64,000 nucleotides of DNA. It comes from Escherichia coli. Lineage in GTDB: Bacteria > Pseudomonadota > Gammaproteobacteria > Enterobacterales > Enterobacteriaceae. Made by a program: the position numbers and the translations under genes. Positions 18,001-42,443 of the stretch are shown here, piece by piece. Positions within the stretch are counted from its first letter, which is position 1. The number at the start of each line of letters is the position of its first letter. The notes beneath the pieces are model-generated. The model did no database searches. It saw nothing but the letters and a program-made list of their open reading frames with translations, and had not been told where the DNA came from. The DNA lies in NCBI RefSeq assembly GCF_050320075.1, contig NZ_CP190018.1; one strand, given 5' to 3'.

Positions 18001-19383
18001 TTATTGCTGCCAACCGCCACCAAGTGCGGTATATAAAGAAATTTCGTTGACCTGACGGGCATAATTCAGGTCAAGTAAGGTTTGTCGGGTTGCAAATAAA
18101 GAACGCTCGGCATCCAGCACTTCCAGATAACTGACTGCGCCGTGCTGATATAATGCCCGCGCCCGTTGCAAAGTAATTTGCAGCGACGCCAGATAACGCT
18201 GCTGGGCGCTGATTTGATCGTTCAGGCTTTGACGTAATGCCAGCGCATCTGCCACTTCTTTAAAGGCGTTCTGGATTTTCTGTTCATAATTCACTACCGA
18301 CTGCTGCTGGCGAATTTCGGCGATATCCAGATTGGCCTGGTTGCGTCCGGCATTAAAAATGGGGATCTCAATTTTAGGAATAAAATTCCACATCCCGCTG
18401 CTGGCGTTAAATAATGACGACAGATCGCTGCTGGCGGTTGATATTCCGCTGGTCAGGCTTATAGATGGGAAAAATGCCGCGCGTGCGGCCCCAATATTGG
18501 CATTAGCCGCCATTAACGCGTGTTCAGCTTCCATAATATCCGGGCGCTGCAATAAGATTTGCGACGACAAGCCCGCCGGTAATTTAACGCTTTGCAGGCT
18601 GTCGCTGTTTACTGTCTGCGCTTGCGGCAGCTTGCCGTAGCTTCCCAATAATAGTTGCAATGCATTATTCGCCTGCGCCAGTTCCCCCTGACGTTTAGCG
18701 ATGTCGCTGCGGGTACTTTCAATCACCCCGCGAGCCTGTTCCAGCGCCAGAACATTGCTGCTACCGGTCAACAGTTGTTTTTCGACAAACGCATATGACT
18801 GCTGATAATTACGCAGCGTTTCTTCGGCTATTTGCAATTGCGCATACGCCAGCTGCTGATTGAAATAGCTTTGCGCGACATTAGAAACCAGCAGAATATG
18901 CACCGCGCGCTGGGCTTCCTCAGTGGCTAAATAATTTTGTCGCTCGGCTTCGCTCACGTTCTTTAAGCGACCGAAAAAATCGAGATCAAAGCTGGCGTTA
19001 AGGCCAGTCGAGAACTCCCGCGTCGTGGCTGAATCGCCTTTAAGATTGCCGCTCCAGCTGCCGCTGCCCTCGCCATTGAGCTGTGGGTAGCGGTCGGCAT
19101 CGGTCAGACGATATTGCGCCCGCGCTTCCTGCACTTTCAGCGTCGCCATGCGCAAATCCCGGTTATTCACCAGCGCCTCGCTAATCAGCGTCTTCACCTG
19201 ATTATCAACAAAAAAGGTGCGCCAGCCCGCGTTCTGGTAGTTATCTGCTGCGTTAACCAGGCCGTTCTGGTTGAGTGAGAACTGCTGCGGCACGGGCATT
19301 GCCGGGCGCTGATAATCCGGTGCCAGTGAACAACCGGTTAGCGCAAGGGCCACACAAAATGGCAGAAGTTTACAAGGAGACAT
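18001..19383 (-). CDS. cusC: Cu(I)/Ag(I) efflux outer-membrane factor (lipoprotein)
   Basis: ORF with lipobox LALTGC; OMF family; first gene of cusCFBA. Confidence 0.95.
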   Translation of the reverse strand: MSPCKLLPFCVALALTGCSLAPDYQRPAMPVPQQFSLNQNGLVNAADNYQNAGWRTFFVDNQVKTLISEALVNNRDLRMATLKVQEARAQYRLTDADRYPQLNGEGSGSWSGNLKGDSATTREFSTGLNASFDLDFFGRLKNVSEAERQNYLATEEAQRAVHILLVSNVAQSYFNQQLAYAQLQIAEETLRNYQQSYAFVEKQLLTGSSNVLALEQARGVIESTRSDIAKRQGELAQANNALQLLLGSYGKLPQAQTVNSDSLQSVKLPAGLSSQILLQRPDIMEAEHALMAANANIGAARAAFFPSISLTSGISTASSDLSSLFNASSGMWNFIPKIEIPIFNAGRNQANLDIAEIRQQQSVVNYEQKIQNAFKEVADALALRQSLNDQISAQQRYLASLQITLQRARALYQHGAVSYLEVLDAERSLFATRQTLLDLNYARQVNEISLYTALGGGWQQ

Positions 19384-19452
19384 AGGCTCATAATTTCTGG
19401 TGATTTTATGCCGCCAACTTTACTCGCCAGGCTCTGATTTTCCGGTGACAGG

Positions 19453-19474
19453 AAAATGACAAAATTGTCATTTT
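19453..19474. promoter_or_regulatory. CusR box (palindrome) in divergent cusC / cusR promoter region
   Basis: Perfect inverted repeat AAAATGACAAAATTGTCATTTT between divergent cusC and cusRS. Confidence 0.65.
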
Positions 19475-19539
19475 GCCAATAAGCGATTGCCATCTGATCC
19501 CGCTACTCTAGAATTGCCCGGGCAACATGCGGAGGAAAT

Positions 19540-20223
19540 ATGAAACTGTTGATTGTCGAAGATGAAAAGAAAACCGGAGAATACTTGACCAAAGGGTTAA
19601 CCGAAGCCGGTTTTGTGGTCGATTTGGCCGACAATGGGCTGAATGGCTACCATCTGGCGATGACCGGTGATTATGACCTGATAATCCTCGATATTATGCT
19701 GCCGGACGTGAACGGCTGGGATATCGTGCGCATGTTGCGCTCCGCCAATAAAGGGATGCCGATTCTGTTGCTTACCGCGCTTGGTACCATTGAACATCGC
19801 GTCAAGGGGCTGGAGTTGGGGGCGGATGACTACCTGGTGAAGCCGTTCGCTTTTGCTGAACTGCTGGCGCGGGTGCGCACTCTACTGCGGCGCGGGGCGG
19901 CGGTAATTATCGAAAGTCAGTTTCAGGTTGCCGATTTGATGGTCGATCTCGTCAGCCGCAAAGTCACCCGTAGCGGCACGCGCATCACGTTGACCAGTAA
20001 AGAATTTACTTTGCTGGAGTTTTTCCTCCGCCATCAAGGCGAAGTGCTGCCCCGCTCGCTTATCGCCTCGCAGGTGTGGGACATGAATTTCGACAGCGAT
20101 ACCAACGCCATTGATGTGGCAGTGAAGCGGCTGCGCGGCAAAATCGACAACGACTTTGAGCCGAAGCTGATTCAAACCGTGCGCGGCGTGGGTTACATGC
20201 TTGAGGTGCCGGATGGTCAGTAA
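19540..20223 (+). CDS. cusR: Copper-responsive two-component response regulator (OmpR family)
   Basis: 227-aa [19 protein letters not shown]..., receiver + winged-helix domain. Confidence 0.95.
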
Positions 20224-21661
20224 GCCATTTCAGCGCCCGTTTTCGCTGGCAACCCGCCTGACCTTTTTTATCAGCCTGGCCACCATCGCGGCGTTTTTCG
20301 CCTTTGCCTGGATCATGATTCACTCGGTAAAAGTGCATTTTGCTGAGCAGGATATTAATGATTTAAAAGAGATTAGCGCCACACTCAAGCGCGTTCTTAA
20401 TCATCCCGAAGAGACACAAGCCCGACGCTTAATGACGCTGGAAGATATCGTCAGTGGTTATTCCAATGTGTTGATTTCCCTGGCAGATAGCCAGGGTAAA
20501 ACGGTGTATCACTCCCCCGGTGCGCCGGATATCCGCGAGTTTACGCGTGACGCCATACCCGATAAAGACACGCGGGGCGGCGAGGTGTATCTCCTTTCCG
20601 GCCCGACGATTATGATGCCGGGCCACGGTCACGGGCATATGGAACACAGCAACTGGCGGATGATTAACTTGCCGGTTGGCCCGTTGGTGGACGGCAAACC
20701 GATTTATACGCTCTACATCGCGCTTTCGATCGATTTTCATCTTCATTACATAAATGATTTGATGAATAAACTTATTATGACCGCATCGATCATCAGCATC
20801 CTGATCGTCTTTATCGTGCTGTTGGCGGTACATAAAGGTCACGCACCGATCCGCAGCGTCAGCCGTCAAATCCAGAACATTACCTCGAAAGATCTCGACG
20901 TTCGCCTTGACCCGCAGACCGTGCCGATTGAGCTGGAACAGCTGGTACTGTCGTTCAACCATATGATCGAGCGTATTGAGGATGTCTTTACTCGCCAGTC
21001 CAATTTCTCAGCGGATATCGCTCACGAAATTCGTACACCAATTACGAATCTCATAACGCAAACCGAAATCGCCCTCAGCCAGTCACGCAGCCAGAAGGAG
21101 CTGGAAGATGTGCTCTACTCTAATCTCGAAGAGCTGACGCGAATGGCGAAAATGGTCAGCGATATGCTGTTTCTCGCCCAGGCCGATAACAACCAGCTAA
21201 TCCCCGAAAAGAAAATGCTCAACCTGGCGGATGAAATCGGCAAAGTGTTCGATTTTTTCGAGGCGCTAGCGGAAGATCGCGGCGTGGAACTGCGGTTTGT
21301 TGGTGACGAGTGTCAGGTTGCGGGCGATCCGCTGATGCTGCGTCGGGCGTTAAGCAACCTGCTTTCGAACGCCCTGCGTTATACGCCGCCCGGAGAGGCG
21401 ATTGTAGTGCGCTGCCAGACGGTCGATCACCAGGTGCAAGTTTCCGTCGAAAACCCCGGTACGCCCATTGCGCCCGAGCACTTACCGCGATTGTTTGACC
21501 GTTTCTACCGCGTTGACCCCTCCCGCCAGCGAAAAGGCGAAGGTAGCGGTATTGGGCTGGCGATAGTGAAATCGATTGTTGTCGCGCATAAAGGCACGGT
21601 TGCAGTAACGTCAGATGCTCGGGGGACAAGGTTTGTGATTATGCTGCCGGAGAGAGAGTGA
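20213..21661 (+). CDS. cusS: Copper-sensing histidine kinase
   Basis: ORF 20201..21661; start at [16 protein letters not shown]...; H-box ([12 protein letters not shown]) and ATPase motifs; overlaps cusR stop. Confidence 0.95.
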
Positions 21662-22397
21662 TTATTAAGTTCAAATTCAGGGCGTGGTGCATCACCTCCT
21701 GGTATTGTTGATCAACAAATTAGAGAAAAACTTATTAAACATATGAAATATCGAAGGCTTTTATTTTTCAAAGTTTCACGAGATGTTTGTATATGAAACT
21801 TAGTTAAATCTGTGTTTCTTCCAATTGTAGATCACAATGCCCTTTCTAAATTTTCATCGTTATAAACAAGCCATCTATCATATAAAGCAATGAATAATTT
21901 AATCGCGATTAATCATCATTAATTGTTATATTATTCACTCAATCTATTTATCAAGTGAATTTGATAAATTCCTAATTTAAAATATCCACTATTGAGCCAG
22001 TATTTAACAACGTTAAGATGTGCAATGTGCAGATCATGTTATCAGGGTGGAGCGGTAGCATATATTTCTTATGCAATCATTCATTTTAATAATGTTAATT
22101 GGATTATTTATTGCTGTGAATAAAAATATATTATGAATATTGGTTTAACTTTGCGTTTTTGTTACTCGTTGTGATATGCGTACCTGTCCTGAATAACGCC
22201 AAGAAACAAGAGGTTGAGCTTGTGATTATTTTTTTGACTGAACAGACACCCGTTTCTGTAAAGTAATATTTAAACAAAATTCTCACATAACCATAGCATT
22301 TTCTGTTCCTTCCCTAATAACGTCTGAAGTCGTCCCGCTTATCACATTATCCGCAGTTGTACGGTACGGATCATTATTCATTTTACTGGAGGTTGCT

Positions 22398-24299
22398 ATG
22401 TCAACCGGATTACGTTTCACACTGGAAGTGGACGGCCTGCCGCCGGATGCTTTTGCGGTGGTTTCCTTTCATCTGAACCAGTCACTCTCTTCGCTCTTTT
22501 CCCTCGATCTCTCCCTGGTCAGCCAGCAGTTTCTCTCCCTTGAATTTGCGCAGGTGCTGGACAAAATGGCCTACCTGACGGTATGGCAGGGCGATGACGT
22601 ACAGCGCCGGGTGAAAGGCGTGGTGACCTGGTTTGAACTCGGGGAGAACGACAAAAACCAGATGCTGTACAGCATGAAGGTGCACCCGCCGCTGTGGCGT
22701 GCCGGTCTGCGCCAGAACTTCCGTATCTTCCAGAACGAGGACATCAAAAGCATCCTCGGCACGATGTTGCAGGAAAACGGGGTGACCGAATGGAGTCCGC
22801 TGTTCAGCGAGCCGCATCCTTCCCGTGAGTTTTGTGTCCAGTACGGTGAGACTGATTACGATTTCCTGTGCCGGATGGCGGCGGAGGAAGGCATCTTCTT
22901 TTATGAGGAGCATGCTTACAAAAGTACCGACCAGAGCCTGGTGCTGTGCGACACAGTCCGCCATCTGCCCGAATCTTTTGAAATCCCATGGAACCCGAAC
23001 ACCCGTACCGAGGTGAGCACCCTCTGCATCAGCCAGTTCCGCTACAGCGCACAAATCCGCCCTTCTTCCGTGGTGACCAAAGACTACACCTTTAAACGCC
23101 CCGGCTGGGCCGGACGTTTTGAACAGGAAGGCCAGCACCAGGACTACCAGCGCACGCAGTATGAAGTGTATGACTACCCCGGACGTTTCAAGGGTGCCCA
23201 CGGGCAGAACTTTGCCCGCTGGCAGATGGACGGCTGGCGAAACAATGCAGAAACCGCGCGGGGAATGAGTCGCTCGCCGGAGATATGGCCGGGACGACGA
23301 ATTGTGCTGACGGGGCATCCGCAGGCGAACCTGAACCGGGAATGGCAGGTGGTGGCAAGTGAACTGCACGGCGAACAGCCACAGGCGGTGCCAGGACGGC
23401 AGGGAGCGGGGACGGCGCTGGAGAACCATTTTGCGGTGATCCCGGCAGACAGAACATGGCGACCACAGCCGTTGCTGAAACCGCTGGTCGACGGCCCGCA
23501 GAGCGCTGTCGTGACAGGACCGGCAGGCGAGGAAATCTTCTGCGACGAACATGGTCGCGTGCGGGTGAAGTTCAACTGGGACCGCTATAACCCGTCAAAC
23601 CAGGACAGTTCGTGCTGGATCCGTGTGGCACAGGCGTGGGCAGGCACCGGTTTTGGCCACCTGGCGATACCGCGTGTGGGTCAGGAGGTGATTGTAGACT
23701 TCCTCAACGGCGATCCGGACCAGCCGATCATTATGGGGCGCACCTACCACCAGGAAAACCGCACCCCCGGCAGCCTGCCGGGAACAAAGACGCAGATGAC
23801 CATCCGCTCCAAAACGTACATGGGCAGCGGATTTAATGAGCTGAAGTTTGATGATGCGACAGGGAGAGAACAGGTCTACATCCACGCGCAGAAGAACATG
23901 GATACCGAAGTGCTCAACGACCGTACCACCACCGTAAAACACGATCACCACGAAACCGTAAAAAATGACCAGACGGTCACGATCCAGGAAGGTAACCGCC
24001 TTCTTACGGTGGAAAAAGGCCACAAGATCACCGGAGTACTGAAAGGGTCTTTATCTGAGGATGTCTTTCAGGACAGAGGCACGATTGCCGGTTCGGTGCA
24101 TGTTGACGCTGTAAACAATGGTGGCGAAGGCGACGGTATACAGGCTTATACGGCGATTAAGGAAATTTTGCTGGCCGTGGAGGAAAGCAAAATTGCGCTG
24201 ACGCCGGATGGCATTCAGCTACAGGTCGGGGAATCGACGGTAATCAGGCTGTCGAAGGATGGCATCACCATCGTGGGCGGTTCTGTTTTCATCAACTGA
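22398..24299 (+). CDS. vgrG: Type VI secretion spike protein VgrG (gp27/gp5-like)
   Basis: 633-aa ORF MSTGLRFTLEVDGLPPDAFAVVSFHLNQSLSSLFSLDLSLVSQ... typical VgrG N-terminus; GGAGG RBS 7 nt upstream. Confidence 0.9.
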   Translation: MSTGLRFTLEVDGLPPDAFAVVSFHLNQSLSSLFSLDLSLVSQQFLSLEFAQVLDKMAYLTVWQGDDVQRRVKGVVTWFELGENDKNQMLYSMKVHPPLWRAGLRQNFRIFQNEDIKSILGTMLQENGVTEWSPLFSEPHPSREFCVQYGETDYDFLCRMAAEEGIFFYEEHAYKSTDQSLVLCDTVRHLPESFEIPWNPNTRTEVSTLCISQFRYSAQIRPSSVVTKDYTFKRPGWAGRFEQEGQHQDYQRTQYEVYDYPGRFKGAHGQNFARWQMDGWRNNAETARGMSRSPEIWPGRRIVLTGHPQANLNREWQVVASELHGEQPQAVPGRQGAGTALENHFAVIPADRTWRPQPLLKPLVDGPQSAVVTGPAGEEIFCDEHGRVRVKFNWDRYNPSNQDSSCWIRVAQAWAGTGFGHLAIPRVGQEVIVDFLNGDPDQPIIMGRTYHQENRTPGSLPGTKTQMTIRSKTYMGSGFNELKFDDATGREQVYIHAQKNMDTEVLNDRTTTVKHDHHETVKNDQTVTIQEGNRLLTVEKGHKITGVLKGSLSEDVFQDRGTIAGSVHVDAVNNGGEGDGIQAYTAIKEILLAVEESKIALTPDGIQLQVGESTVIRLSKDGITIVGGSVFIN

Positions 24300-24326
24300 T
24301 TCACTCAGATTATCAGGGAGTATTTT

Positions 24327-24788
24327 ATGCAGTTCACTTTTAATGAAGGCCACATTCAACTGCCGTCTCAATGGCAGGATCAGTCAATGCAGGTCCTGGT
24401 GTCCACAGATAACAGTGGCATCAACCTGGTCATTACCCGCGAAGCCGTTCCACAGGGAACCCTGACACCAGAGCTGTACCAGGAAACGCTGGCGCTGTAC
24501 CAGGGCAAACTTGATGGGTACACCGAACATGCCTGCCGGGAAATCACTCTGGCAGAGGCCCCGGCCTGGCTGCTGGATTATTCCTGGAACGGTCCGGAAG
24601 ATGAGGGGAATCAGGGGCGGATTAGCCAGATAGCCGTATTCCAGCGGCGTGGAGATACGCTGCTGACCTTCACTTTCAGCACCTCCTTATCCCTGAAGAA
24701 CAGTCAAAAGACGATGCTGCTGGAGGTGATAAAGAGCTTCACCCCGTTGCCACCGGAGAATGACATCCAAAAGGACCAGCCGCGCTGA
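24327..24788 (+). CDS. DUF1795-family (Eag-type) effector-associated chaperone
   Basis: 153-aa ORF immediately between vgrG and a prePAAR-Rhs gene; size and position match Eag chaperones; family assignment from memory of the sequence class, not from a search. Confidence 0.65.
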   Translation: MQFTFNEGHIQLPSQWQDQSMQVLVSTDNSGINLVITREAVPQGTLTPELYQETLALYQGKLDGYTEHACREITLAEAPAWLLDYSWNGPEDEGNQGRISQIAVFQRRGDTLLTFTFSTSLSLKNSQKTMLLEVIKSFTPLPPENDIQKDQPR

Positions 24789-24807
24789 CATAAACGAGGG
24801 ATAACAC

Positions 24808-27800
24808 ATGAGTGAAGGACCAGGCGGGCCACAGGGAGCGACCGCAGGCGGTACGCTGGCAATGCGAATGCTGTCACAGCAGGCGATGGTCGCCAGCCAG
24901 ATGAAACGGGCAGCCAACGACAAAGCCATTGCACAGATGCTGGCATCAAAAAAGTCCGGCCCCCCCGCCGCCAGGCTGGGCGATGAAATTCAGCACAAGA
25001 GTTTTTTGGGGGCGCTGGCAGGGGCCGTGCTGGGGGCGATAGTGACCATCGCAGAAGGTTGCCTGATTATGGCCGCCTGTGCCACCGGCCCTTATGCGCT
25101 GGTTCTGGTGCCTGCGCTGATGTATGCCAGCTATAAGGCGAGTGATTATGTGGAGGAGAAACAGAACCAGCTTGAATCATGGATAAACAGCTTTTGTGAC
25201 ACGGACGGCGCCATCAATACCGGTTCTGAAAATGTAAACATTAACGGAAAGCCCGCTGCCAGGGCCGCCGTCACCCTTCCCCCTCCTCCCCCACCTGGAG
25301 CAATACCTGAAATCCCACAGGGGGAACCCTCATGGGGTGATATTGCCACTGACCTGCTTGAATCGGCAGCGGAAAAAGCAGTACCACTGGCGAAGGCCTG
25401 GGGGAACGCTGTTATCACCCTGACGGACAGCAATGCCGGTTTTATGGATCGCGTCAGCGCCGGCGCATCGCTTCTGTTTCCCGCCGGTCCGGTATTAATG
25501 GAGTTTGCCACCATGGTGGGCGGGCGTGGCGAAATCAAAAAAGATGTGGATTTCCCGGAAGCCGGTGAGGACACGGCGCTCTGCGACAAGGAGAACAAAC
25601 CACCGAGGATAGCCCAGGGCAGCAGCAACGTCTTTATCAACAATCAGCCCGCCGCGCGCAAGGGCGACAAACTGGAGTGCAGCGCGGCAATCGTGGAAGG
25701 TTCGCCGGACGTCTTTATTGGCGGTGAACAGGTGACCTATCTGGATATCCAGCCAGAGTTCCCGCCGTGGCAGAGAATGATCCTGGGGGGAATAACGATA
25801 GCCAGCTATCTTCTGCCGCCAGCGGGACTGCTGGGAAAACTGAAGAATCTGGCGAGACTCGGCAAACTGGGGAACCTGCTGGGGAAAAGCGGGAAGCTGC
25901 TGGGGGCAAAGCTCGGCGCGTTGCTGGGAAAAACAGGTAAGTCGTTAAAAAGTATTGCCAATAAAGTCATCAGATGGGTAACAGATCCTGTCGATCCGGT
26001 AACCGGCGCGTACTGCGACGAACGTACCGACTTTACGCTGGGCCAGACCCTCCCCCTCTCCTTCACCCGTTTCCACAGTTCTGTACTGCCGCTGCATGGC
26101 CTGACCGGCGTGGGCTGGAGCGACTCCTGGAGCGAATACGCCTGGGTGCGTGAACAGGGAAACCGGGTGGATATCATCAGCCAGGGAGCCACGCTGAACT
26201 TCGCCTTCGACGGTGACAGTGATACGGCGGTTAACCCGTATCACGCCCAGTACATTCTGCGCCGCCGCGATGATTATCTGGAGCTGTTCGACAGGGATGC
26301 ACTGAGCAGCCGCTTCTTTTATGACGCCTTTCCGGGAATGCGTCTGCGCCACCCGGTGACTGACGATACCAGCGATGACCGCCTGGCACACAGCCCCAAT
26401 GACCGGATGTACATGCTGGGCGGGATGAGCGACACCGCCAGCAACCGCATCACGTTTGAGCGCGACAGCCAGTACCGGATCACAGGTGTCAGTCACACCG
26501 ACGGGATCCGGCTTAAACTGACGTACCACGCCAGCGGCTACCTGAAAGCCATTCACCGCACGGATAACGGCATACAGACGCTGGCGACCTACGAACAGGA
26601 TGCGCGGGGGCGGCTGACAGAAGCGGATGCGCGGCTGGACTACCACCTGTTTTATGAGTACGACGCTGCGGACCGGATCATCCGCTGGTCCGATAACGAC
26701 CAGACGTGGAGCCGTTTCACCTACGATGAACAGGGCCGGTGCGTGAATGTCACCGGGGCGGAGGGCTATTACAACGCCACGCTGGACTATGGTGACGGCT
26801 GCACCACCGTGACGGACGGCAAGGGCATTCACCGTTATTACTATGATCCTGACGGCAATATTCTGCGGGAAGCAGCGCCGGACGGCAGCACCACCATGTA
26901 TGAATGGGATGAATTCCATCACCTGCTGGCCCGTCACTCCCCTGCCGGGCGGGTGGAGAAATTTGAATACAACGCCGCACACGGTCAGTTAAGCCGTTAC
27001 ACGGCGGCAGACGGCGCGGAGTGGCAGTACCGCTATGATGAGCGCGGCCTGCTCAGCAACATCACCGACCCTGCCGGGCAGACGTGGACACAGCAGTGTG
27101 ATGAACGCGGCCTGCCGGTAAGTCTGGTGTCGCCACAGGGCGAAGAGACCCGGCTGGCATACACCGCTCAGGGGCTGCTGTCGGGAATATTCCGCCAGGA
27201 TGAACGGCGTCTGGGCATAGAGTACGACCACCACAACCGGCCGGAAACACTCACCGACGTGATGGGCCGCGAACACCACACCGAATACAGTGGTCACGAC
27301 CTGCCGGTGAAGATGCGCGGCCCCGGCGGTCAGTCAGTGAGGTTGCAGTGGCAGCAGCACCATAAACTGAGCGGCCTTGAGCGCACTGGCACCGGCGCGG
27401 AAGGATTCCGCTACGACCGTCACGGCAACCTGCTGGCGTACACGGACGGTAACGGTGTTGTCTGGACAATGGAGTACGGCCCGTTTGATTTGCCGGTGGC
27501 GCGAACGGACGGTGAAGGCCACCGCTGGCAGTACCGCTACGATAAAGACACGCTGCAACTGACAGAAGTCATCAACCCGCAGGGTGAGTCATATCTTTAT
27601 GTTCTGGATAACTGCGGCCGGGTGACGGAAGAGCGTGACTGGGGCGGCGTGGTCTGGCGTTACCGTTATGATGCCGATGGCCTGTGTACCGCCAGGGTTA
27701 ACGGTCTGGAGGAAACCATCCTCTACAGCCGGGACGCCGCAGGCCGCCTGGCAGAAGTCATCACGCCGGAAGGCAAAACGCAGTATGCGTATGACAAATC

Positions 27801-29640
27801 CGGCAGGCTGACGGGTATCTTCAGCCCGGACGGCACATCACAGCGCACCGGCTATGACGAACGCGGGCGGGTGAATGTCACCACTCAGGGCCGACGGGCC
27901 ATTGAATACCACTACCCCGATGAACACACCGTCATCCGCTGTATCCTGCCACCGGAAGATGAACGCGACAGACACCCCGGTGAATCCCTGCTGAAAACCA
28001 CGTACCGCTACAACGCAGCCGGAGAACTGGCAGAGGTCATCCTGCCGGAGGATGAGACGCTGACGTTCAGCCGTGATGAGGCAGGACGTGAAGTGCTCCG
28101 GCACAGTAACCGGGGTTTTGCCTGTGAGCAGGGCTGGAATGCAGCCGGTCAGCTTACCAGCCAGCGCGCCGGACTTTTCCCGGCGGAAGCCACATGGGGC
28201 GGACTGCTCCCCTCACTGGTGCGGGAGTACCGTTACGACAGCGCGGGCAATGTGTCGGCTGTCACCAGCCGGGAAGATTACGGACGGGAAACTCGCCGGG
28301 AGTACCGGCTGGACCGGAACGGCCAGGTCACGGCGGTGACAGCCTCAGGCACCGGGCTGGGCTATGGCGAAGGCGATGAGTCCTATGGCTATGACAGCTG
28401 CGGCTACCTGAAGGCGCAGTCTGCGGGCTGGCACCGGATAAGTGAAGAGACTGACCAGTATGCCGGAGGCCACCGGCTGAAACAGGCCGGAAACACGCAG
28501 TATGACTATGACGCCGCAGGCCGGATGGTCAGCCGCATAAAACACCGTGACGGCTACCGCCCGGAAACAGAGCGGTTCCGGTGGGACAGCCGTGACCAGC
28601 TGACCGGGTATTGCAGCGCACAGGGTGAACAGTGGGAATACCGCCACGACGCCAGCGGCAGACGGACGGAAAAACGCTGCGACCGGAAGAAAATCCGCAT
28701 CACGTACCTGTGGGACGGCGACAGTATTGCGGAAATCCGGGAATACCGCGATGATAAACTGTACAGCGTACGGCACCTGGTGTTTAACGGCTTTGAGCTG
28801 ATAAGCCAGCAGTGCAGCCGGGTACGGCAGCCGCATCCGTCCGTGGCCCCGCAGTGGGTGACGCGGACGAATCATGCGGTGAGCGACCTGACGGGCCGTC
28901 CGCTGATGCTCTTTAACAGTGAAGGTAAAACCGTCTGGCGACCGGGGCAGACCAGCCTGTGGGGGCTGGCACTCAGCCTGCCCGCAGACACCGGCTACCC
29001 GGACCCGCGCGGGGAACTGGACGCGGAAGCCGACCCCGGCCTGCTGTATGCAGGACAGTGGCAGGATGCGGAATCCGGGCTGTGCTATAACCGGTTCCGG
29101 TATTACGAGCCGGAAACAGGGATGTACCTGGTGAGTGATCCGCTGGGGTTGCTGGGGGGTGAGCAGACTTACCGGTATGTGCCGAATCCGTGTGGGTATG
29201 TTGATCCGCTGGGATTAGCATTTTGCCCCAGAATGCAGAAGACATTGCAAAAATTAACTGACAAGGCTGTTGCTGATATTATCGCTAACCCCAGACTCGC
29301 TGAAGATCTGATGTCGGCGGGGAGCTATGCACATTTAAAAAATGGAACTAATTTATATGCAGCCAGTTTTGGTAAGGCTGTTGAACGTAGGGTTGCACAG
29401 TTAGTTAGTGACAATTCCCGATTAAGCAAACTTGTTGAACATACTGGTCAGGCCAAGGGGGCTAATGGACAGTTTATATCGAGCCCTGACTTCACCACTA
29501 AAGGTAAAGGCGTGTTCGACGTTACAACAAATAAAGCACTCCAAGCGCATATAGACAGATATACTAAAGCTGGTGTGTATACTCCCTATAATGATATTGG
29601 TTACTTGGTATATGATGTCGTATATGGATTATCTTTCTAA
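24808..29640 (+). CDS. rhs: prePAAR/PAAR-domain Rhs polymorphic toxin (T6SS effector) with C-terminal toxin domain
   Basis: 1610-aa ORF; N-terminal AARLGDEIQH (prePAAR AARxxDxxxH), hydrophobic TM segments, PAAR-like segments (NINGKPAAR, FINNQPAARKGD), long YD-repeat region, Rhs core ending PCGYVDPLGL (PxxxxDPxGL) at 29188-29217, followed by ~141-aa low-GC C-terminal domain. Confidence 0.9.
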   Translation: MSEGPGGPQGATAGGTLAMRMLSQQAMVASQMKRAANDKAIAQMLASKKSGPPAARLGDEIQHKSFLGALAGAVLGAIVTIAEGCLIMAACATGPYALVLVPALMYASYKASDYVEEKQNQLESWINSFCDTDGAINTGSENVNINGKPAARAAVTLPPPPPPGAIPEIPQGEPSWGDIATDLLESAAEKAVPLAKAWGNAVITLTDSNAGFMDRVSAGASLLFPAGPVLMEFATMVGGRGEIKKDVDFPEAGEDTALCDKENKPPRIAQGSSNVFINNQPAARKGDKLECSAAIVEGSPDVFIGGEQVTYLDIQPEFPPWQRMILGGITIASYLLPPAGLLGKLKNLARLGKLGNLLGKSGKLLGAKLGALLGKTGKSLKSIANKVIRWVTDPVDPVTGAYCDERTDFTLGQTLPLSFTRFHSSVLPLHGLTGVGWSDSWSEYAWVREQGNRVDIISQGATLNFAFDGDSDTAVNPYHAQYILRRRDDYLELFDRDALSSRFFYDAFPGMRLRHPVTDDTSDDRLAHSPNDRMYMLGGMSDTASNRITFERDSQYRITGVSHTDGIRLKLTYHASGYLKAIHRTDNGIQTLATYEQDARGRLTEADARLDYHLFYEYDAADRIIRWSDNDQTWSRFTYDEQGRCVNVTGAEGYYNATLDYGDGCTTVTDGKGIHRYYYDPDGNILREAAPDGSTTMYEWDEFHHLLARHSPAGRVEKFEYNAAHGQLSRYTAADGAEWQYRYDERGLLSNITDPAGQTWTQQCDERGLPVSLVSPQGEETRLAYTAQGLLSGIFRQDERRLGIEYDHHNRPETLTDVMGREHHTEYSGHDLPVKMRGPGGQSVRLQWQQHHKLSGLERTGTGAEGFRYDRHGNLLAYTDGNGVVWTMEYGPFDLPVARTDGEGHRWQYRYDKDTLQLTEVINPQGESYLYVLDNCGRVTEERDWGGVVWRYRYDADGLCTARVNGLEETILYSRDAAGRLAEVITPEGKTQYAYDKSGRLTGIFSPDGTSQRTGYDERGRVNVTTQGRRAIEYHYPDEHTVIRCILPPEDERDRHPGESLLKTTYRYNAAGELAEVILPEDETLTFSRDEAGREVLRHSNRGFACEQGWNAAGQLTSQRAGLFPAEATWGGLLPSLVREYRYDSAGNVSAVTSREDYGRETRREYRLDRNGQVTAVTASGTGLGYGEGDESYGYDSCGYLKAQSAGWHRISEETDQYAGGHRLKQAGNTQYDYDAAGRMVSRIKHRDGYRPETERFRWDSRDQLTGYCSAQGEQWEYRHDASGRRTEKRCDRKKIRITYLWDGDSIAEIREYRDDKLYSVRHLVFNGFELISQQCSRVRQPHPSVAPQWVTRTNHAVSDLTGRPLMLFNSEGKTVWRPGQTSLWGLALSLPADTGYPDPRGELDAEADPGLLYAGQWQDAESGLCYNRFRYYEPETGMYLVSDPLGLLGGEQTYRYVPNPCGYVDPLGLAFCPRMQKTLQKLTDKAVADIIANPRLAEDLMSAGSYAHLKNGTNLYAASFGKAVERRVAQLVSDNSRLSKLVEHTGQAKGANGQFISSPDFTTKGKGVFDVTTNKALQAHIDRYTKAGVYTPYNDIGYLVYDVVYGLSF
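27186..29217 (+). repeat. Direct repeat copy 1 (3' part of Rhs core, ~2.03 kb)
   Basis: Near-identical to 30384..32412 (visible by eye: ATTCCGCCAGGATGAACGGCGTCTGGGCATAGAGTACGACCACCAC... through ...GATCCGCTGGGATT). Confidence 0.9.
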
Positions 29641-29662
29641 AGCAAACTAATGGTAACTAAAT

Positions 29663-30373
29663 ATGACAAAAGTTCTTGAGAATGAAGAGTTCAATTCTAT
29701 ACATATAGACGAAGGTGGGGTTTTTAATAGTTTACGCTTTGAAAAATGTCTTTTTCAAAGCTGTAGCATACTTAGCAGAAAACTAAATGATAATAGTGAT
29801 TTACCTCCTCGCTTTGAAAACATTCTCATTAAAGATTGCACTGCTCTTAATTGTGTAAGTGGCCCAGCTTTTTTAAAAGATGTAACTGTTGAGAATTTTA
29901 GGACCGGTGATATTTTTCTTATTTATTCCACTATGTTTCATCATGTAACATTAAAAGGAAAGCTTGGGGCAATAAAAATAAATAAAAAAGATTATGTGCG
30001 TGACTATGATAGCCATCAAAGACATATTGAGATGATGAGAACGAGATTTTATTCTCAGATAGATTGGGCGATGGATATATCACAGGCGAAGTTTTTAAGT
30101 TTCTCCTGCAAAGGTATCCCAGCAAAATTAATTAGACGAGATAGTGAGACTCAATTTGTTGTAACGAGGAAACGTTTCAACTCTATGGATGTACTAAATG
30201 CAGAATTTAAAGGACAATACCCGTTTGTTTATTTACTGCTGGAGCTCTTTTTAGAATCAGATGAAGATGACCAGGTATTAGTTACACCATTAGGCAAAGC
30301 AAAAAAATATTATCAGCCAATTCTCGAAGGATTTAGAGAGTTAAGACGAGCAGGAATACTCGAACCTAACTAA
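29663..30373 (+). CDS. Putative cognate immunity protein of the Rhs C-terminal toxin
   Basis: 236-aa ORF starting 22 nt after the rhs stop, AT-rich codon usage unlike the Rhs core; position is the canonical immunity slot. No recognisable family. Confidence 0.6.
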   Translation: MTKVLENEEFNSIHIDEGGVFNSLRFEKCLFQSCSILSRKLNDNSDLPPRFENILIKDCTALNCVSGPAFLKDVTVENFRTGDIFLIYSTMFHHVTLKGKLGAIKINKKDYVRDYDSHQRHIEMMRTRFYSQIDWAMDISQAKFLSFSCKGIPAKLIRRDSETQFVVTRKRFNSMDVLNAEFKGQYPFVYLLLELFLESDEDDQVLVTPLGKAKKYYQPILEGFRELRRAGILEPN

Positions 30374-30383
30374 ATAAGGGTTA

Positions 30384-32412
30384 TATTCCGCCAGGATGAA
30401 CGGCGTCTGGGCATAGAGTACGACCACCACAACCGGCCGGAAACACTCACCGACGTGATGGGCCGCGAACACCACACCGAATACAGTGGTCACGACCTGC
30501 CGGTGAAGATGCGCGGCCCCGGCGGTCAGTCAGTGCGCTTACAGTGGCAGCAGCACCATAAACTGAGTGGCCTTGAGCGCACTGGCACCGGCGCGGAAGG
30601 ATTCCGCTACGACCGCCACGGCAACCTGCTGGCCTGGACGGACGGTAACGGTGTTGTCTGGACAATGGAATACGGCCCGTTTGATTTGCCGGTGGCGCGA
30701 ACGGACGGTGAAGGCCACCGCTGGCAGTACCGCTACGATAAAGACACGCTGCAACTGACAGAAGTCATTAACCCGCAGGGTGAGTCATATCTTTATGTTC
30801 TGGATAACTGCGGCCGGGTGACGGAAGAGCATGACTGGGGCGGCGTGGTCTGGCGTTACCGCTATGACGCCGATGGCCTGTGTACCGCCAGGGTCAACGG
30901 CCTGGAGGAAACCATCCTCTACAGCCGGGACGCCGCAGGCCGCCTGGCAGAAGTCATCACGCCGGAAGGCAAAACGCAGTATGCCTATGACAAATCCGGC
31001 AGGCTGACGGGTATCTTCAGCCCGGACGGCACATCACAGCGCACCGGCTATGACGAACGCGGGCGGGTGAATGTCACCACTCAGGGCCGACGGGCCATTG
31101 AATACCACTACCCCGACGAACACACCGTCATCCGCTGTATCCTGCCACCGGAAGATGAACGCGACAGACACCCCGGTGAATCCCTGCTGAAAACCACGTA
31201 CCGCTACAACGCCGCCGGAGAACTGACGGAGGTCATTCTGCCGGGGGATGAGACGCTGACGTTCAGCCGTGATGAGGCAGGACGTGAAGTGCTCCGGCAC
31301 AGTAACCGGGGTTTTGCCTGTGAACAGGGCTGGAATGCAGCCGGTCAGCCTGTCAGTCAGCGCGCCGGACTTTTCCCGGCAGAAGCCACATGGGGCGGGC
31401 TGCTCCCCTCACGGGTACGGGAGTACCGTTACGACAGCGCGGGTAATGTGTCAGGCGTCACCAGCCGGGAAGATTACGGACGGGAAACACGGCGGGAATA
31501 CCGGCTGGACCGGAACGGCCAGGTCACGGCGGTGACAGCCTCAGGCACCGGGCTGGGCTATGGCGAAGGCGATGAGTCCTATGGCTATGACAGCTGCGGC
31601 TACCTGAAGGCGCAGTCTGCGGGCTGGCACCGGATAAGTGAAGAGACTGACCAGTATGCCGGAGGCCACCGGCTGAAACAGGCCGGAAACACGCAGTATG
31701 ACTATGACGCCGCAGGCCGGATGGTCAGCCGCATAAAACACCGTGACGGCTACCGCCCGGAAACAGAGCGGTTCCGGTGGGACAGCCGTGACCAGCTGAC
31801 CGGGTATTGCAGCGCACAGGGTGAACAGTGGGAATACCGCCACGACGCCAGCGGCAGACGGACGGAAAAACGCTGCGACCGGAAGAAAATCCGCATCACG
31901 TACCTGTGGGACGGCGAAGTATTGCGGAAATCCGGGAATACCGCGATGATAAACTGTACAGCGTACGGCACCTGGTGTTTAACGGCTTTGAGCTGATAAG
32001 CCAGCAGTTCAGCCGGGTACGGCAGGCGCATCCGTCGGTGGCCCCGCAGTGGGTGACACGGACGAATCATGCGGTGAGCGACCTGACGGGCCGTCCGCTG
32101 ATGCTCTTTAACAGTGAAGGTAAAACCGTCTGGCGACCGGGACAGACCAGCCTGTGGGGGCTGGCACTCAGCCTGCCCGCAGACACCGGCTACCCGGACC
32201 CGCGCGGGGAACTGGACCCGGAAGCCGACCCCGGCCTGCTGTATGCAGGACAGTGGCAGGATGCAGAATCCGGGCTGTGCTATAACCGGTTCCGGTATTA
32301 CGAGCCGGAAACCGGGATGTACCTGGTGAGTGATCCGCTGGGGTTGCTGGGGGGTGAGCAGACTTACCGGTATGTGCCAAATCCGTGTGGGTGGGTTGAT
32401 CCGCTGGGATTG
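30384..32412 (+). repeat. Direct repeat copy 2 (orphan Rhs core fragment)
   Basis: See copy 1 at 27186..29217. Confidence 0.9.
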
Positions 32413-32865
32413 GCTGCAAGTTCTAAAATCAGCAGTTTGATGGACTATATTGGCGATGGTCGTCGTGTTAGTGGGCATACGGGTTTCCTGGATGGGGTTC
32501 GTTTATCACGTAGTCAAATAAACAATATTGCTAAAGAAATGGAGAAGCTAGGAATTAAAGTAATAAGGAAAGCAGATAAATATTTGCCACCAAATGCTAG
32601 GGCAGCTTTTGATTATGGCCTTCGCAATATTTATCTTAGGAAAAATGCTACCTTATATGAGGTGTATCATGAAGTGATTCATGCTAAGCAATTTGCGAAA
32701 ATTGGACGAGAAGCATACGAAGCACTAGGACGTTTATCTAGGGAGGAACACGTTCTAAATGAAATATTAAAAAGTAAAAATTTATTCAATGAGGCGGAAA
32801 TAGCTCATGCCATAAAATATGTTGAGGGATTGAGAGAAAAATTCATGATGGGACTAATAAATTGA
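30384..32865 (+). pseudogene. Orphan Rhs core-fragment + alternative C-terminal toxin domain, frameshifted
   Basis: Repeats the 3' 2 kb of the rhs core; 1-bp deletion near 31917 (GGCGAAGTATTGCGG vs GGCGACAGTATTGCGG in the main copy) splits it into ORFs 30455..31996 and 31828..32865; ends DPLGL (32398-32412) + divergent ~150-aa CT containing HEVIH. Confidence 0.8.
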
Positions 32866-33113
32866 TAAAACATAACAAAATAACTATCGAAATGGCTCTT
32901 GACTTGGCTCGGCGTGAGTTAGAGTTAAGGGAAATTCCTTATATTAAAAATAGTCTACATGCCAATTACAGCTATAAATCTATTAGTATTGGTTCTAAGC
33001 AAGGTTGGTTAATTTCAGCGAAATTAAAAGTCCCTGAAACTTTTGAGCCTGATATGATATTTATTGAGATATCTGACCCAGAAGGTTTTATTAATATTCC
33101 TGATGTATTATAA
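32862..33113 (+). CDS. Putative immunity protein for the orphan Rhs-CT
   Basis: 83-aa low-GC ORF overlapping the orphan CT stop; start codon uncertain (TTG in ORF track). Confidence 0.45.
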   Translation: MIKHNKITIEMALDLARRELELREIPYIKNSLHANYSYKSISIGSKQGWLISAKLKVPETFEPDMIFIEISDPEGFINIPDVL

Positions 33114-33309
33114 ACTACGTTAGAGGTTTTGTTATAAGGTAATCGGTTTCTTTACAGACCGCTGGCGTACATCGCACAGAGGCTGCTAACAGGGATATTC
33201 CTGCCTGGATGAACGCAAGGCAAGATCATGGAAATAGTGATATACATCACTATTTCCATCCTGATTTTAGCTATCGCATTAATAAAACAGCGGATGTTAG
33301 CCAATATCG

Positions 33310-33500
33310 AAACCAGTAACCCGTATCACGCCCAGTACATCCTGCGCCGCCGCGATGATTACCTGGTGCTGTTCGACCGTGATGCCCTGAGCTGCCGCTT
33401 CTTTTATGACGCCTTTCCGGGAATGCGTCTGCGCCACCAGGTGACCGGCGATACCGACGATGACCGCCTGGCACACAGCCCCGCAGACCGGATGTATACA
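33310..33500 (+). pseudogene. Vestigial Rhs core fragment
   Basis: NPYHAQYILRRRDDYLVLFDRDALSCRFFYDAFPGMRLRH... matches main rhs at ~26228..26420; embedded in ORF 33228..33539 with unrelated flanks. Confidence 0.7.
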
Positions 33501-33579
33501 GGGAAAGATCATCAGAAGTACACTTTTTGTACTAAATAATTCACATTTTATGTTTAAAAATTGAGATATTCCTCATTAC

Positions 33580-34800
33580 CTGAAGCTGTTTTTTATTGCT
33601 TATACATGATCAAATACTCCTTACATAATTAAGGAGAACAAAATGGAACTTAAAAAATTGATGGAACATATTTCTATTATTCCCGATTACAGACAAGCCT
33701 GGAAAGTGGAACATAAATTATCGGATATTCTATTGTTGACTATTTGTGCCGTTATTTCTGGTGCGGAAGATTGGGAAGATATAGAGGATTTTGGGGAAAC
33801 ACATCTCGATTTTTTGAAGCAATATGGTGATTTTGAAAATGGTATTCCTGTTCACGATACCATTGCCAGAGTTGTATCCTGTATCAGTCCTGCAAAATTT
33901 CACGAGTGCTTTATTAACTGGATGCGTGACTGCCATTCTTCAGATGATAAAGACGTCATTGCAATTGATGGAAAAACGCTCCGGCACTCTTATGACAAGA
34001 GTCGCCGCAGGGGAGCGATTCATGTCATTAGTGCGTTCTCAACAATGCACAGTCTGGTCATCGGACAGATCAGGACGGATGAGAAATCCAATGAGATTAC
34101 AGCTATCCCAGAACTTCTTAACATGCTGGATATTAAAGGAAAAATCATCACAACTGATGCGATGGGTTGCCAGAAAGATATTGCAGAGAAGATACAAAAA
34201 CAGGGAGGTGATTATTTATTCGCGGTAAAAGGAAACCAGGGGCGGCTAAATAAAGCCTTCGAGGAAAAATTTCCGCTGAAAGAATTAAATAATCCAGAGC
34301 ATGACAGTTACGCAATGAGTGAAAAGAGTCACGGCAGAGAAGAAATCCGTCTTCACATTGTTTGCGATGTCCCTGATGAACTTATTGATTTCACGTTTGA
34401 ATGGAAAGGTCTGAAGAAATTATGCGTGGCAGTCTCCTTTCGGTCAATAATAGCAGAACAAAAGAAAGAGCCAGAAATGACGGTCAGATATTATATTAGT
34501 TCTGCTGATTTAACCGCAGAGAAGTTCGCCACAGCAATCCGAAACCACTGGCACGTGGAGAATAAGCTGCACTGGCGTCTGGACGTGGTAATGAATGAAG
34601 ACGACTGCAAAATAAGAAGAGGAAATGCAGCAGAATTATTTTCAGGGATACGGCACATCGCTATTAATATTTTGACGAATGATAAGGTATTCAAGGCAGG
34701 GTTAAGACGTAAGATGCGAAAAGCAGCCATGGACAGAAACTATCTGGCGTCAGTCCTTGCGGGGAGCGGGCTTTCGTAATCTTGCCCTGCCTGCTCACCT
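33580..34800 (+). mobile_element. H-rpt / ISAs1-family insertion sequence (approximate bounds)
   Basis: Transposase CDS 33643..34779; terminal inverted repeats not delimited by me. Confidence 0.5.
33643..34779 (+). CDS. H-repeat-associated protein / ISAs1-family transposase (H-rpt)
   Basis: 378-aa [63 protein letters not shown]... recognised as the H-rpt (YhhI/YdcC-like) transposase that accompanies Rhs elements. Confidence 0.85.
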
Positions 34801-35049
34801 CCTCCAGGCACTTCCACTACATGATGACCTGCTCGGTGCCACCGCTCCTTTTCACTATGACGTTAACCTCCCTGTCCCAGGACACCATGCTTTTGTCTAC
34901 ATTCTACGCAAACGGCAACTTTTATAACCAGTGTAAAAATAACGTGCCGCAATAGTCATACCTATTAATGGTAAAAAGCTGTCACAATTCATAAAAAACC
35001 TTAATATACGCCACCCTAAACATAACCAGCGTTAATGTAAGGTTTTTGT

Positions 35050-37287
35050 GTGGACTGGCTTCTTGATGTTTTTGCTACCTGGCTCTACGGCTTAAAAGTA
35101 ATCGCGATAACGTTAGCGGTCATCATGTTCATCAGCGGGCTGGACGATTTTTTTATTGATGTCGTCTACTGGGTACGCCGCATTAAACGCAAGTTGAGTG
35201 TTTATCGCCGCTACCCGCGAATGAGTTACCGCGAACTGTATAAACCAGATGAAAAACCGTTAGCGATTATGGTTCCGGCGTGGAATGAAACGGGCGTCAT
35301 CGGCAATATGGCCGAGCTGGCGGCGACCACGCTCGACTATGAAAACTATCATATCTTTGTTGGCACCTACCCCAACGACCCCGATACTCAGCGTGATGTT
35401 GACGAAGTGTGCGCTCGCTTCCCGAATGTGCATAAGGTAGTCTGCGCGCGACCTGGCCCCACCAGCAAAGCCGACTGCCTGAACAACGTGCTGGACGCCA
35501 TCACCCAGTTTGAGCGTAGCGCCAATTTCGCTTTTGCTGGTTTTATTCTGCATGACGCCGAAGATGTGATTTCACCGATGGAATTGCGTCTGTTCAACTA
35601 TCTGGTCGAGCGTAAAGATCTGATTCAGATCCCGGTGTATCCGTTCGAACGCGAATGGACGCACTTCACCAGCATGACTTACATTGATGAGTTTTCAGAA
35701 CTGCATGGCAAAGATGTTCCGGTGCGTGAAGCCCTCGCCGGACAAGTGCCCAGCGCAGGCGTCGGTACCTGTTTCAGCCGCCGCGCCGTGACCGCACTGT
35801 TAGCTGACGGTGACGGTATTGCTTTCGACGTGCAGAGTCTTACTGAAGATTACGACATTGGCTTCCGCCTGAAAGAAAAAGGTATGACGGAAATTTTTGT
35901 CCGTTTTCCGGTGGTGGACGAAGCCAAAGAACGCGAGCAGCGTAAATTTTTACAGCACGCGCGGACGTCAAACATGATCTGCGTGCGCGAATATTTCCCC
36001 GATACCTTTTCGACTGCGGTTCGACAAAAATCTCGCTGGATCATCGGCATTGTTTTCCAGGGCTTTAAAACCCACAAATGGACCTCCAGTCTGACGCTGA
36101 ACTACTTTCTCTGGCGCGACCGCAAAGGGGCAATCAGTAACTTTGTCAGCTTCCTCGCGATGCTGGTGATGATCCAGCTTTTGCTGTTGCTGGCGTATGA
36201 AAGTTTGTGGCCCGATGCCTGGCATTTCCTTTCTATTTTCAGCGGCAGCGCATGGTTAATGACTCTGCTGTAGCTAAACTTTGGCTTGATGATTAACCGC
36301 ATCGTGCAGCGGGTGATTTTCGTTACTGGCTACTACGGCCTGACGCAGGGGCTGCTATCTGTCCTGCGTCTTTTCTGGGGCAACCTGATTAACTTCATGG
36401 CCAACTGGCGCGCGTTAAAACAGGTACTTCAACACGGCGATCCACGTCGTGTCGCGTGGGATAAAACAACGCATGACTTCCCCAGCGTGACTGGCGATAC
36501 CCGCTCGTTGCGTCCGTTAGGTCAAATCCTGCTGGAAAATCAGGTCATCACTGAAGAACAACTCGATACAGCACTGCGTAATCGCGTCGAAGGTCTACGC
36601 CTGGGCGGTTCAATGCTGATGCAGGGGCTGATTAGCGCCGAACAGCTGGCACAGGCGCTGGCAGAGCAAAACGGCGTGGCGTGGGAGTCGATCGACGCCT
36701 GGCAGATCCCTTCATCACTGATTGCCGAAATGCCGGCTTCCGTGGCGCTGCATTATGCAGTACTGCCGCTGCGTCTGGAAAATGATGAGTTAATTGTCGG
36801 CAGTGAAGATGGTATTGACCCGGTTTCGCTGGCGGCCCTGACGCGTAAAGTCGGACGCAAAGTGCGTTACGTCATTGTTCTGCGGGGACAAATTGTCACG
36901 GGGTTACGCCACTGGTATGCGCGCCGACGCGGTCACGATCCGCGGGCAATGTTGTACAATGCGGTTCAGCATCAGTGGCTCACGGAACAGCAGGCCGGTG
37001 AAATCTGGCGGCAATATGTGCCGCATCAGTTCCTGTTCGCCGAAATACTGACCACGCTCGGTCATATTAATCGTTCAGCAATTAACGTGTTGTTATTGCG
37101 CCATGAACGCAGTTCTCTGCCGCTCGGCAAGTTTTTGGTCACCGAAGGCGTTATCAGCCAGGAAACGTTGGATCGCGTCCTGACAATTCAACGCGAATTA
37201 CAAGTTTCGATGCAATCACTATTACTCAAAGCAGGTTTAAACACAGAACAGGTTGCGCAACTGGAGTCCGAAAATGAAGGAGAATAA
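35050..37287 (+). pseudogene. nfrB: Phage N4 adsorption protein B (family-2 glycosyltransferase), interrupted by in-frame amber codon
   Basis: ORFs 35050..36273 (407 aa) and 36286..37287 (333 aa) are in the same frame, separated only by TAG at 36271-36273; 407+1+337 = 745 codons, the full NfrB length as I recall it. Confidence 0.8.
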
Positions 37288-42125: not shown

Positions 42126-42202
42126 TGGCGCGCCCTGCAGGATTCGAACCTGCGGCCCACGACTTAGAAGGTCGTTGCTCTATCCAACTGAGCTAAGGGC
42201 GC
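42126..42202 (-). tRNA. argU: tRNA-Arg (anticodon UCU)
   Basis: Reverse complement reads GCGCCCTTAGCTCAGTTGGATAGAGCAACGACCTTCTAAGTCGTGGGCCGCAGGTTCGAATCCTGCAGGGCGCGCCA; cloverleaf-compatible, anticodon loop CTTCTAA. Confidence 0.92.
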
Positions 42203-42443
42203 GTTGATACCGCAATGCGGTGTAATCGCGTGAATTATACGGTCAACCCTTGCTGAGTCAATGGCTTTTGATCTGGTTGCTGAACAAGTGAACGACCGCG
42301 TCTGATTTTCTGATTTATTCGCTATAGCGGCAAACAAACGCACATCGCTGCGCGTCTGAATCAAGAAAACCCGTATTTTCATGTATCAAAGTACAATTTC
42401 CCGCCCTAACGGAAAATTGTCCGATCCAATGAGACTGGTAACT

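Follow-up and report, generated by a model that had tools for sequence, protein, structure and literature searches.

The SPI-6 locus of Salmonella is a horizontally acquired T6SS locus that is silenced by H-NS, and in silent operons of the bgl type an AT-rich upstream region bound by H-NS is the target of IS1 or IS5 insertion. Rhs elements classically consist of conserved cores with divergent AT-rich flanks. The promoter of the sci1 T6SS of EAEC is reportedly a Fur/Dam epigenetic switch (Brunet et al. 2011). In EHEC, the promoter of an acquired T6SS locus is silenced by H-NS (Wan et al. 2017, PMC5363993). The chromosomal site between cusS and nfrB, to which the DNA described here belongs, is Rhs locus 4 of Jackson et al. 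2009 (PMC2935791, Table 3), and its counterpart in EDL933 has been named the 'vgrG-2 orphan locus' (Z0700-Z0707; PMC12981562, PMC5363993).

The spacer between yncH and vgrE/rhsE in K-12 (approximately K-12 1,527,150-1,527,900; Rhs locus 6, Jackson et al. 2009) is a true paralogue of positions 21945-22397 of our DNA, with 80-81% identity overall and 92% in the core. Genomic SELEX identified both an RpoD-holoenzyme (sigma-70) site and an H-NS site in the yncH-rhsE spacer in vitro, and the authors predicted a K-12 promoter of the form TTGACT-17-TATTAC (PMC3946193). The same spacer is bound by H-NS in vivo according to the ChIP-seq data of Kahramanoglou 2011, as these are flagged in PMC10294691, and a weak PhoB ChIP-seq peak at K-12 1527862, 5' of rhsE, lies inside the H-NS-bound region (PMC10294691). 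Our literature search found no direct work on the leader described below, and no hns-deletion derepression data for this locus.

We examined the 736 nt that lie between the cusS stop codon (at 21661) and the vgrG ATG (22398) in the window, by which we mean the whole 64-kb stretch of E. coli DNA that was analysed. This leader (21662-22397) is made of two parts, a fast-evolving, locus-specific stretch of 283 nt and a module of 453 nt that accompanies vgrG and precedes it at the yncH locus as well. It has in common with the yncH-rhsE spacer its AT-richness, the vgrG start, the ribosome-binding site and the promoter-like site TTATCA-16-TATATT. It differs from that spacer in its left 283 nt, which are unrelated, and in three deletions (4, 11 and 10 nt); with one of them, the spacing of the promoter that was predicted in K-12 is lost. 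The K-12 module, for its part, ends at the equivalent of 22339 and is fused by deletion to a 5'-deleted rhsE. As in the EHEC T6SS and SPI-6, AT-rich DNA precedes GC-richer T6SS genes on accessory DNA, and silence under laboratory conditions would be expected here as well. However, those loci are main T6SS clusters known to be derepressed in hns mutants, whereas ours is an orphan vgrG island for which composition and the paralogue provide the data. The comparison with bgl-type operons extends to IS1, copies of which interrupt this leader at three separate points in other strains, although in two of the three cases the island was deleted and not activated.

The island and its left breakpoint

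K-12 MG1655 aligns to 18483-21639 of the window and picks up again at 34908, which leaves about 13.3 kb (21640-34907) missing from K-12. The names originally given to the flanking genes are borne out by Pfam, VgrG lying to the right and the sensor kinase CusS to the left. Lying between cusS and nfrB, the island occupies the nfrB/cusS Rhs locus, and its genes, all on the plus strand, have the order of an orphan vgrG-Rhs island. The first is the spike gene vgrG (22398-24299, 633 aa; Phage_GPD at 3.7e-74, Gp5_trimer_C and Phage_base_V), followed by a DcrB/Eag-type (DUF1795-type) chaperone (24327-24788; Pfam DcrB), a PAAR-Rhs toxin (24808-29640; PAAR_motif, RHS_repeat and prePAAR) and a 236-aa ORF without a Pfam match (29663-30373). 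Orphan Rhs fragments identified by Pfam lie 3' of the main rhs gene (30455-32865), and the ISAs1 transposase gene follows (33643-34779; Pfam). The 736 nt would represent the untranslated 5' leader of this orphan T6SS effector island, comprising vgrG, the Eag chaperone, PAAR-Rhs, the orphan tips and ISAs1. One of the Rhs fragments ends in a Tox-MPTase4 metallopeptidase toxin domain, and their arrangement ahead of the ISAs1 (H-repeat) transposase is the pattern of displaced C-terminal tips.

At the right end of the island, the breakpoint relative to K-12 falls at 34907/34908. The ancestral cusS-nfrB spacer is intact there (34908-35049, plus strand), directly 5' of nfrB and 98.5% identical to K-12 from K-12 position 3181 on, and in a search with the K-12 junction all island-bearing genomes matched from the point corresponding to 34908 onward. 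The adjacent nfrB gene (35050-37287) contains an in-frame stop at 36271-36273 (..AWLMTLL, stop, LNFGL..) that breaks it up into two ORFs (407 and 333 aa), and nfrB of the island-related strain YSP8-1 is flagged 'internal stop' by RefSeq. Farther to the right, a tRNA-Arg(TCT) gene (argU; 42126-42202, minus strand) lies between ORFs 41320-42072 and 42381-43076, which match envY and fimZ by their position in strain OkiPb01679. Between these two ORFs there is no DLP12-type prophage, appY or ompT, in contrast to K-12.

At the left end, homology to the empty-site allele stops at 21636-21639, about 22 nt short of the cusS stop, and all 736 nt of the leader are therefore island-specific. The CusS proteins end in ..IMLPERE (this DNA) or ..IKLPEKG in island-bearing genomes and in ..ITLPA in empty-site genomes (..RFVITLPA in K-12), in each case followed by the stop; since these tails differ, the final cusS codons, stop included, must come from the island. 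SCU-115, a divergent empty-site strain (96% identical), has a CusS tail of the K-12 type, and in strain S1-IND-02-A, which carries a divergent, type II island allele, the breakpoint is at the same place as in this DNA. By K-12 alignment and by base-level and protein comparison, the breakpoint lies within the last eight or so codons of cusS, in the island-specific 3' tail of the gene (21637-21661, plus strand), and this is as fine a placement as can be made because both types of tail retain an I-x-L-P motif.

The original prediction had allowed that the true left junction of the insertion might lie inside the leader, which is wrong by about 22 nt, the breakpoint being within the 3' end of cusS. 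It had also named, as an outcome that would speak against island-specific DNA, alignment of the whole region to the ancestral cusS-nfrB spacer; we found the opposite, as none of the leader aligns there. The description of the leader as horizontally variable DNA 5' of T6SS cargo agrees with its absence from K-12 and from 2,327 of 5,426 genomes. Homology between the two vgrG loci does begin within the leader, at about 21916-21945, which might suggest that an integration junction or attachment site is located there; an internal module boundary therefore exists. However, the breakpoint relative to empty-site genomes lies to the left of the leader (21637-21661) in every allele examined, and a search for integration signatures at the leader revealed no tRNA gene, tandem repeat, convincing flanking direct repeat or relevant inverted repeat. 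Nor did Pfam detect an integrase in the island, whose sole transposase, ISAs1, is at the far end. We consider it highly improbable that the leader holds an integration junction or attachment site, and the start of the island is corrected to a position within the 3' end of cusS.

Composition and two-part anatomy of the leader

The vgrG start at 22398 is the one annotated by RefSeq in identical copies, and a Shine-Dalgarno sequence, GGAGG (22388-22392, plus strand), is found 5 nt upstream of it. Both the exact coordinates of the stretch and its marked AT-richness, with many A/T tracts, had been recognized correctly. With 31.5% GC (68.5% AT) versus 51.9% GC across the window, the leader is the lowest-GC stretch of its length in the 64 kb, only 0.03% of sliding windows being equally low, and it contains 12 A/T homopolymer tracts of at least 4 nt and 12 A/T-only runs of at least 8 nt. 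It is also free of ORFs of 60 aa or more, as had been pointed out, yet this is expected from its composition. No closed ORF exceeds 51 aa, and this is the chance level: in shuffles of equal composition the longest ORF averages 52 aa, and 26% of the shuffles reach 60 aa. The leader codes for neither protein nor structured RNA.

The left part (21662-21944, plus strand) is a hypervariable, locus-specific AT-rich spacer of 283 nt with 29% GC, island DNA that is not common to the yncH/vgrE locus. Its identity to the yncH-locus spacer is 43%, the random level, and its identity to the type II cusS-locus allele of S1-IND-02-A is 74.5%; O157 is without 21688-21845, and in strain D5 an IS1 sits within it. 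The right part (21945-22397, plus strand) is a shared vgrG leader module of 453 nt with 33% GC that precedes vgrG at two loci of E. coli, cusS-nfrB and yncH (vgrE/rhsE), and is 80-81% identical to the yncH-rhsE spacers of K-12 and 1916D6. Indels of 4, 10 and 11 nt set the two leader types apart.

Phylogenetic footprinting was restricted to four E. coli haplotypes because the plasmid, phage and species-genome collections searched yielded no usable homologue outside E. coli. Inter-type conservation delimits a core at 21950-22070 (plus strand), a candidate promoter/operator region, with 90-92.5% identity between leader types versus 76-79% for 22071-22397 (Fisher p = 7e-5 and 4e-4). The sliding maximum of conservation, 97%, is reached at 22010-22054, a second conserved block at 22220-22264 attains 83-87%, and near-identity among all haplotypes returns from about 22373, just ahead of the vgrG ribosome-binding site.

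Several symmetrical sequences occur in the left half of the leader. A palindrome scan detected two perfect 14-nt palindromes, TTGTTGATCAACAA with a GATC at its centre (21705-21718) and TTAATCGCGATTAA just left of the shared module (21900-21913), where 0.08 would be expected; two were reached in 3 of 500 dinucleotide shuffles. The type II allele has lost the TTAATCGCGATTAA palindrome by deletion, and in its version of the TTGTTGATCAACAA palindrome paired G>A / C>T changes preserve arms of 5 bp. A dyad with 9-bp arms, ATTTATCAA-N6-TTGATAAAT (21946-21969), is degraded in the yncH-locus copy. Palindromes and dyad are modestly above shuffle expectation and conserved only partly. The right arm of the dyad yields TTGATAAATT (21961-21970), which matches the H-NS high-affinity motif TCGATAAATT at 9 of 10 positions; it is the single match of this quality in the leader, and 20% of shuffles do as well.

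Candidate promoters and the control of vgrG

A consensus scan identified TTATCA-16-TATATT (22039-22066, plus strand; -10 hexamer TATATT at 22061-22066) as a candidate sigma-70 promoter. It is the only promoter-like site of the plus strand that is identical in all five aligned sequences, and it falls within the most conserved stretch. Transcription from this site would start near 22073 and give a 5' UTR about 325 nt long. A GATC (22032-22035), kept in all haplotypes, is located 3 nt 5' of the candidate -35 hexamer. A second candidate promoter, TTGACT-19-TAAAGT (22234-22264, plus strand), lies in the conserved block 22220-22264 and has the top PWM score in this DNA and the O157 copies, but is weak in type II copies. 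In promoter prediction, proposed earlier as a check on the leader, promoter-like hexamer pairs were no commoner than in shuffles (3 versus 3.6), and the promoter call therefore stands on conservation and not on the number of sites. The specific assignment of the promoter to TTATCA-16-TATATT is tentative, and we regard it as possible rather than probable. The TTGACT-17-TATTAC promoter predicted in K-12 is not transferable to this copy because an 11-nt deletion falls on it (22145-22165). The PhoB peak of K-12 (1527862) maps to 22292-22309, where the Pho-box-like sequence CATGACATTTTTCTGATA of K-12 is degraded to CATAGCATTTTCTGTTCC, and a search of the leader for sigma-54 sites revealed only one TGG-N9-TGC string.

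The idea of an H-NS-silenced promoter, put forward in the original prediction, gains from the K-12 paralogue of the 453-nt module (about 81% identical), which binds both H-NS and sigma-70 holoenzyme. It gains nothing from the count of hexamer pairs, and 10-11 bp phasing of A-tracts (AA/TT), a proxy for the curvature that had been proposed as a further check, is absent from the leader; in silenced regions of this type, however, a high-affinity nucleation motif or intrinsic curvature lends support but is not required. The AT excess extends over several hundred bp, as in regions of the H-NS type (68.5% over 736 nt versus 48% for the 64-kb window), and the DNA is accessory and variable, being absent from K-12 and from the empty-site genomes. 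On composition and the paralogue, H-NS presumably binds this copy of the leader too, and the leader is most simply, and plausibly, placed among the upstream regions of the H-NS-silenced type that precede T6SS cargo acquired by horizontal transfer. We hold with moderate confidence that the leader most likely carries the island promoter under H-NS silencing.

The leader could instead be a passive, promoterless spacer, with vgrG and rhs transcribed by read-through from the copper-responsive cusRS operon. It is consistent with this that cusS and vgrG are co-oriented, that a scan 3' of cusS (21500-22500) predicted no intrinsic terminator-like site, and that the RNA immediately 3' of the cusS stop has no more stable a fold than shuffles do (z = +0.19). 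However, the same 453-nt module is found 5' of vgrG at the yncH locus behind a different upstream gene, and its core is significantly conserved. Moreover, Rho normally halts read-through in untranslated stretches of the H-NS type, and the 736 nt are a stretch of just that sort. Together with the in vitro binding of sigma-70 holoenzyme by the K-12 copy (PMC3946193), these observations make read-through an unlikely source of vgrG transcripts. That vgrG is controlled by a functional RNA (riboswitch, sRNA or structured 5' UTR) or by a small leader peptide is less likely still, and indeed very improbable, even though the predicted 5' UTR is long (about 325 nt) and the centroid fold of the second conserved block (22220-22264) includes a short hairpin. 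An Rfam scan of the leader at permissive E-values returned sub-threshold noise only, with no family at E<0.2 and best matches of 18-24 bits against gathering scores of 40-170. The putative UTR folds worse than shuffles (z = +1.75), the core has z = -1.44 and -1.35 on the two strands, and the leader types differ by indels of 4, 10 and 11 nt. None of the 16 ORFs of at least 15 aa is intact in all four haplotypes, each being disrupted by an indel or a stop in one or more of them. Membership in a structured RNA family (sub-threshold in Rfam, fold z from +1.75 to -1.44) and a leader peptide or small protein gene (no ORF of at least 15 aa kept across the four haplotypes) were both rejected.

A further alternative would make the leader a specific regulatory switch and not a generic H-NS target, either a Fur/Dam epigenetic promoter of the EAEC sci1 type or a promoter controlled by PhoB. 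As in sci1, this is a T6SS-related promoter region with a GATC near candidate promoter hexamers; the GATC at 22032 is conserved in all haplotypes, and sequences with dyad symmetry are enriched in the leader. Unlike sci1, the leader contains no detectable Fur box (none within 6 mismatches of the 19-nt consensus), for which reason a Fur/Dam switch of this type was rejected, and GATC sites are not enriched, the count of 4 versus 2.1 expected being unremarkable. PhoB does give a ChIP peak 5' of rhsE in K-12 (PMC10294691), but the Pho box of K-12 is altered here as described above, and no Pho box was found in the leader at up to 5 mismatches. Altogether we judge a specific switch of either kind distinctly unlikely, slightly more so than read-through.

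Under H-NS silencing of an island promoter, the 453-nt module would carry the sigma-70 promoter of the island, with TTATCA-16-TATATT (22039-22066) in the conserved core as the best candidate. H-NS would cover the 68.5% AT stretch and keep this promoter off under laboratory conditions, in line with what is reported for the module in K-12; spurious sense and antisense promoters of the leader would be silenced by the same cover. The upstream 283-nt spacer may lengthen the platform for H-NS, and may also separate or buffer vgrG from cusRS transcription.

Distribution and divergence of leader haplotypes

Our survey set of 5,426 complete E. coli genomes includes 2,327 with an empty cusS-nfrB site. 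The leader is present in about 2,800, approximately 2,370 of the 5,426 matching it at 99% identity or better, with about 335 carrying the O157-type variant and about 90 a divergent allele. Roughly half of E. coli genomes have the island at this known Rhs locus, the carriers including BL21(DE3), E24377A and O157:H7, and at least 80% of the 453-nt module is found in 3,803 of the 5,426. Leader homologues in the plasmid collection did not go beyond pieces of E. coli chromosome, and there were none in the phage collection. A 20-nt core pattern searched over 100,044 species genomes gave one match, a 37-nt remnant beside yncG in an Escherichia-like MAG. The contig in question (DXKH01000108.1, 'Citrobacter sp.') is 91-95% identical to the yncG/ansP region of E. 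coli, and its remnant of the leader core adjoins an ISAs1-like remnant; the genus label Citrobacter appears doubtful. The yncH-locus leader may predate E. coli.

In other strains, IS1 is present in the leader at positions equivalent to approximately 21880-21930 (D5), 22047 (OkiPb01679) and 22317 (YSP8-1). The event in D5 is a simple insertion, and the two others are accompanied by deletion of the island, one reaching ybcH and one reaching the ISAs1 remnant.

One striking feature in the comparison of strains is the presence of sharp steps in divergence at about 21637 and about 22373, that is, at both ends of the leader. Between this DNA and S1-IND-02-A, cusS differs by 3-7% (17% at four-fold sites), the leader by 14-25% plus indels and vgrG by 0.6%; in the comparison of strains, cusS diverges by 4-5% (12-17% at four-fold sites). 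The vgrG of the yncH locus, too, shows a difference of about 1% in its first 1,300 nt, though it lies behind the other leader type, so that vgrG genes 0.6-1.2% divergent sit behind two leader haplotypes some 20% apart. The simplest explanation is that the GC-rich vgrG/rhs cores evolve in concert, through gene conversion or transfer, and that this process ends where the AT-rich flank begins, a reading that fits the classical Rhs picture of conserved cores and divergent AT-rich flanks (see also PMC2935791). More speculatively, the leader might be a swappable regulatory cassette, in which two ancient haplotypes about 20% divergent, with indels that re-space promoter elements, would provide lineage-specific expression of the same toxin-delivery module at two chromosomal loci, and in which an anti-silencer or a phase-variable switch would dock at the conserved core of 120 nt, with its dyads and the GATC next to the promoter; we think this improbable.

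Both the island and its position were already known, and nothing in the leader departs from a known kind, of which it is an ordinary example. The practical value of our results is modest and they open no new biological question. This orphan vgrG-Rhs toxin island occurs in about half of sequenced E. coli. The data obtained on the yncH-rhsE spacer of K-12 can be used as a proxy for this leader, and the search for the control region of the island is narrowed from 736 nt to a conserved core of 120 nt and one or two candidate promoters.
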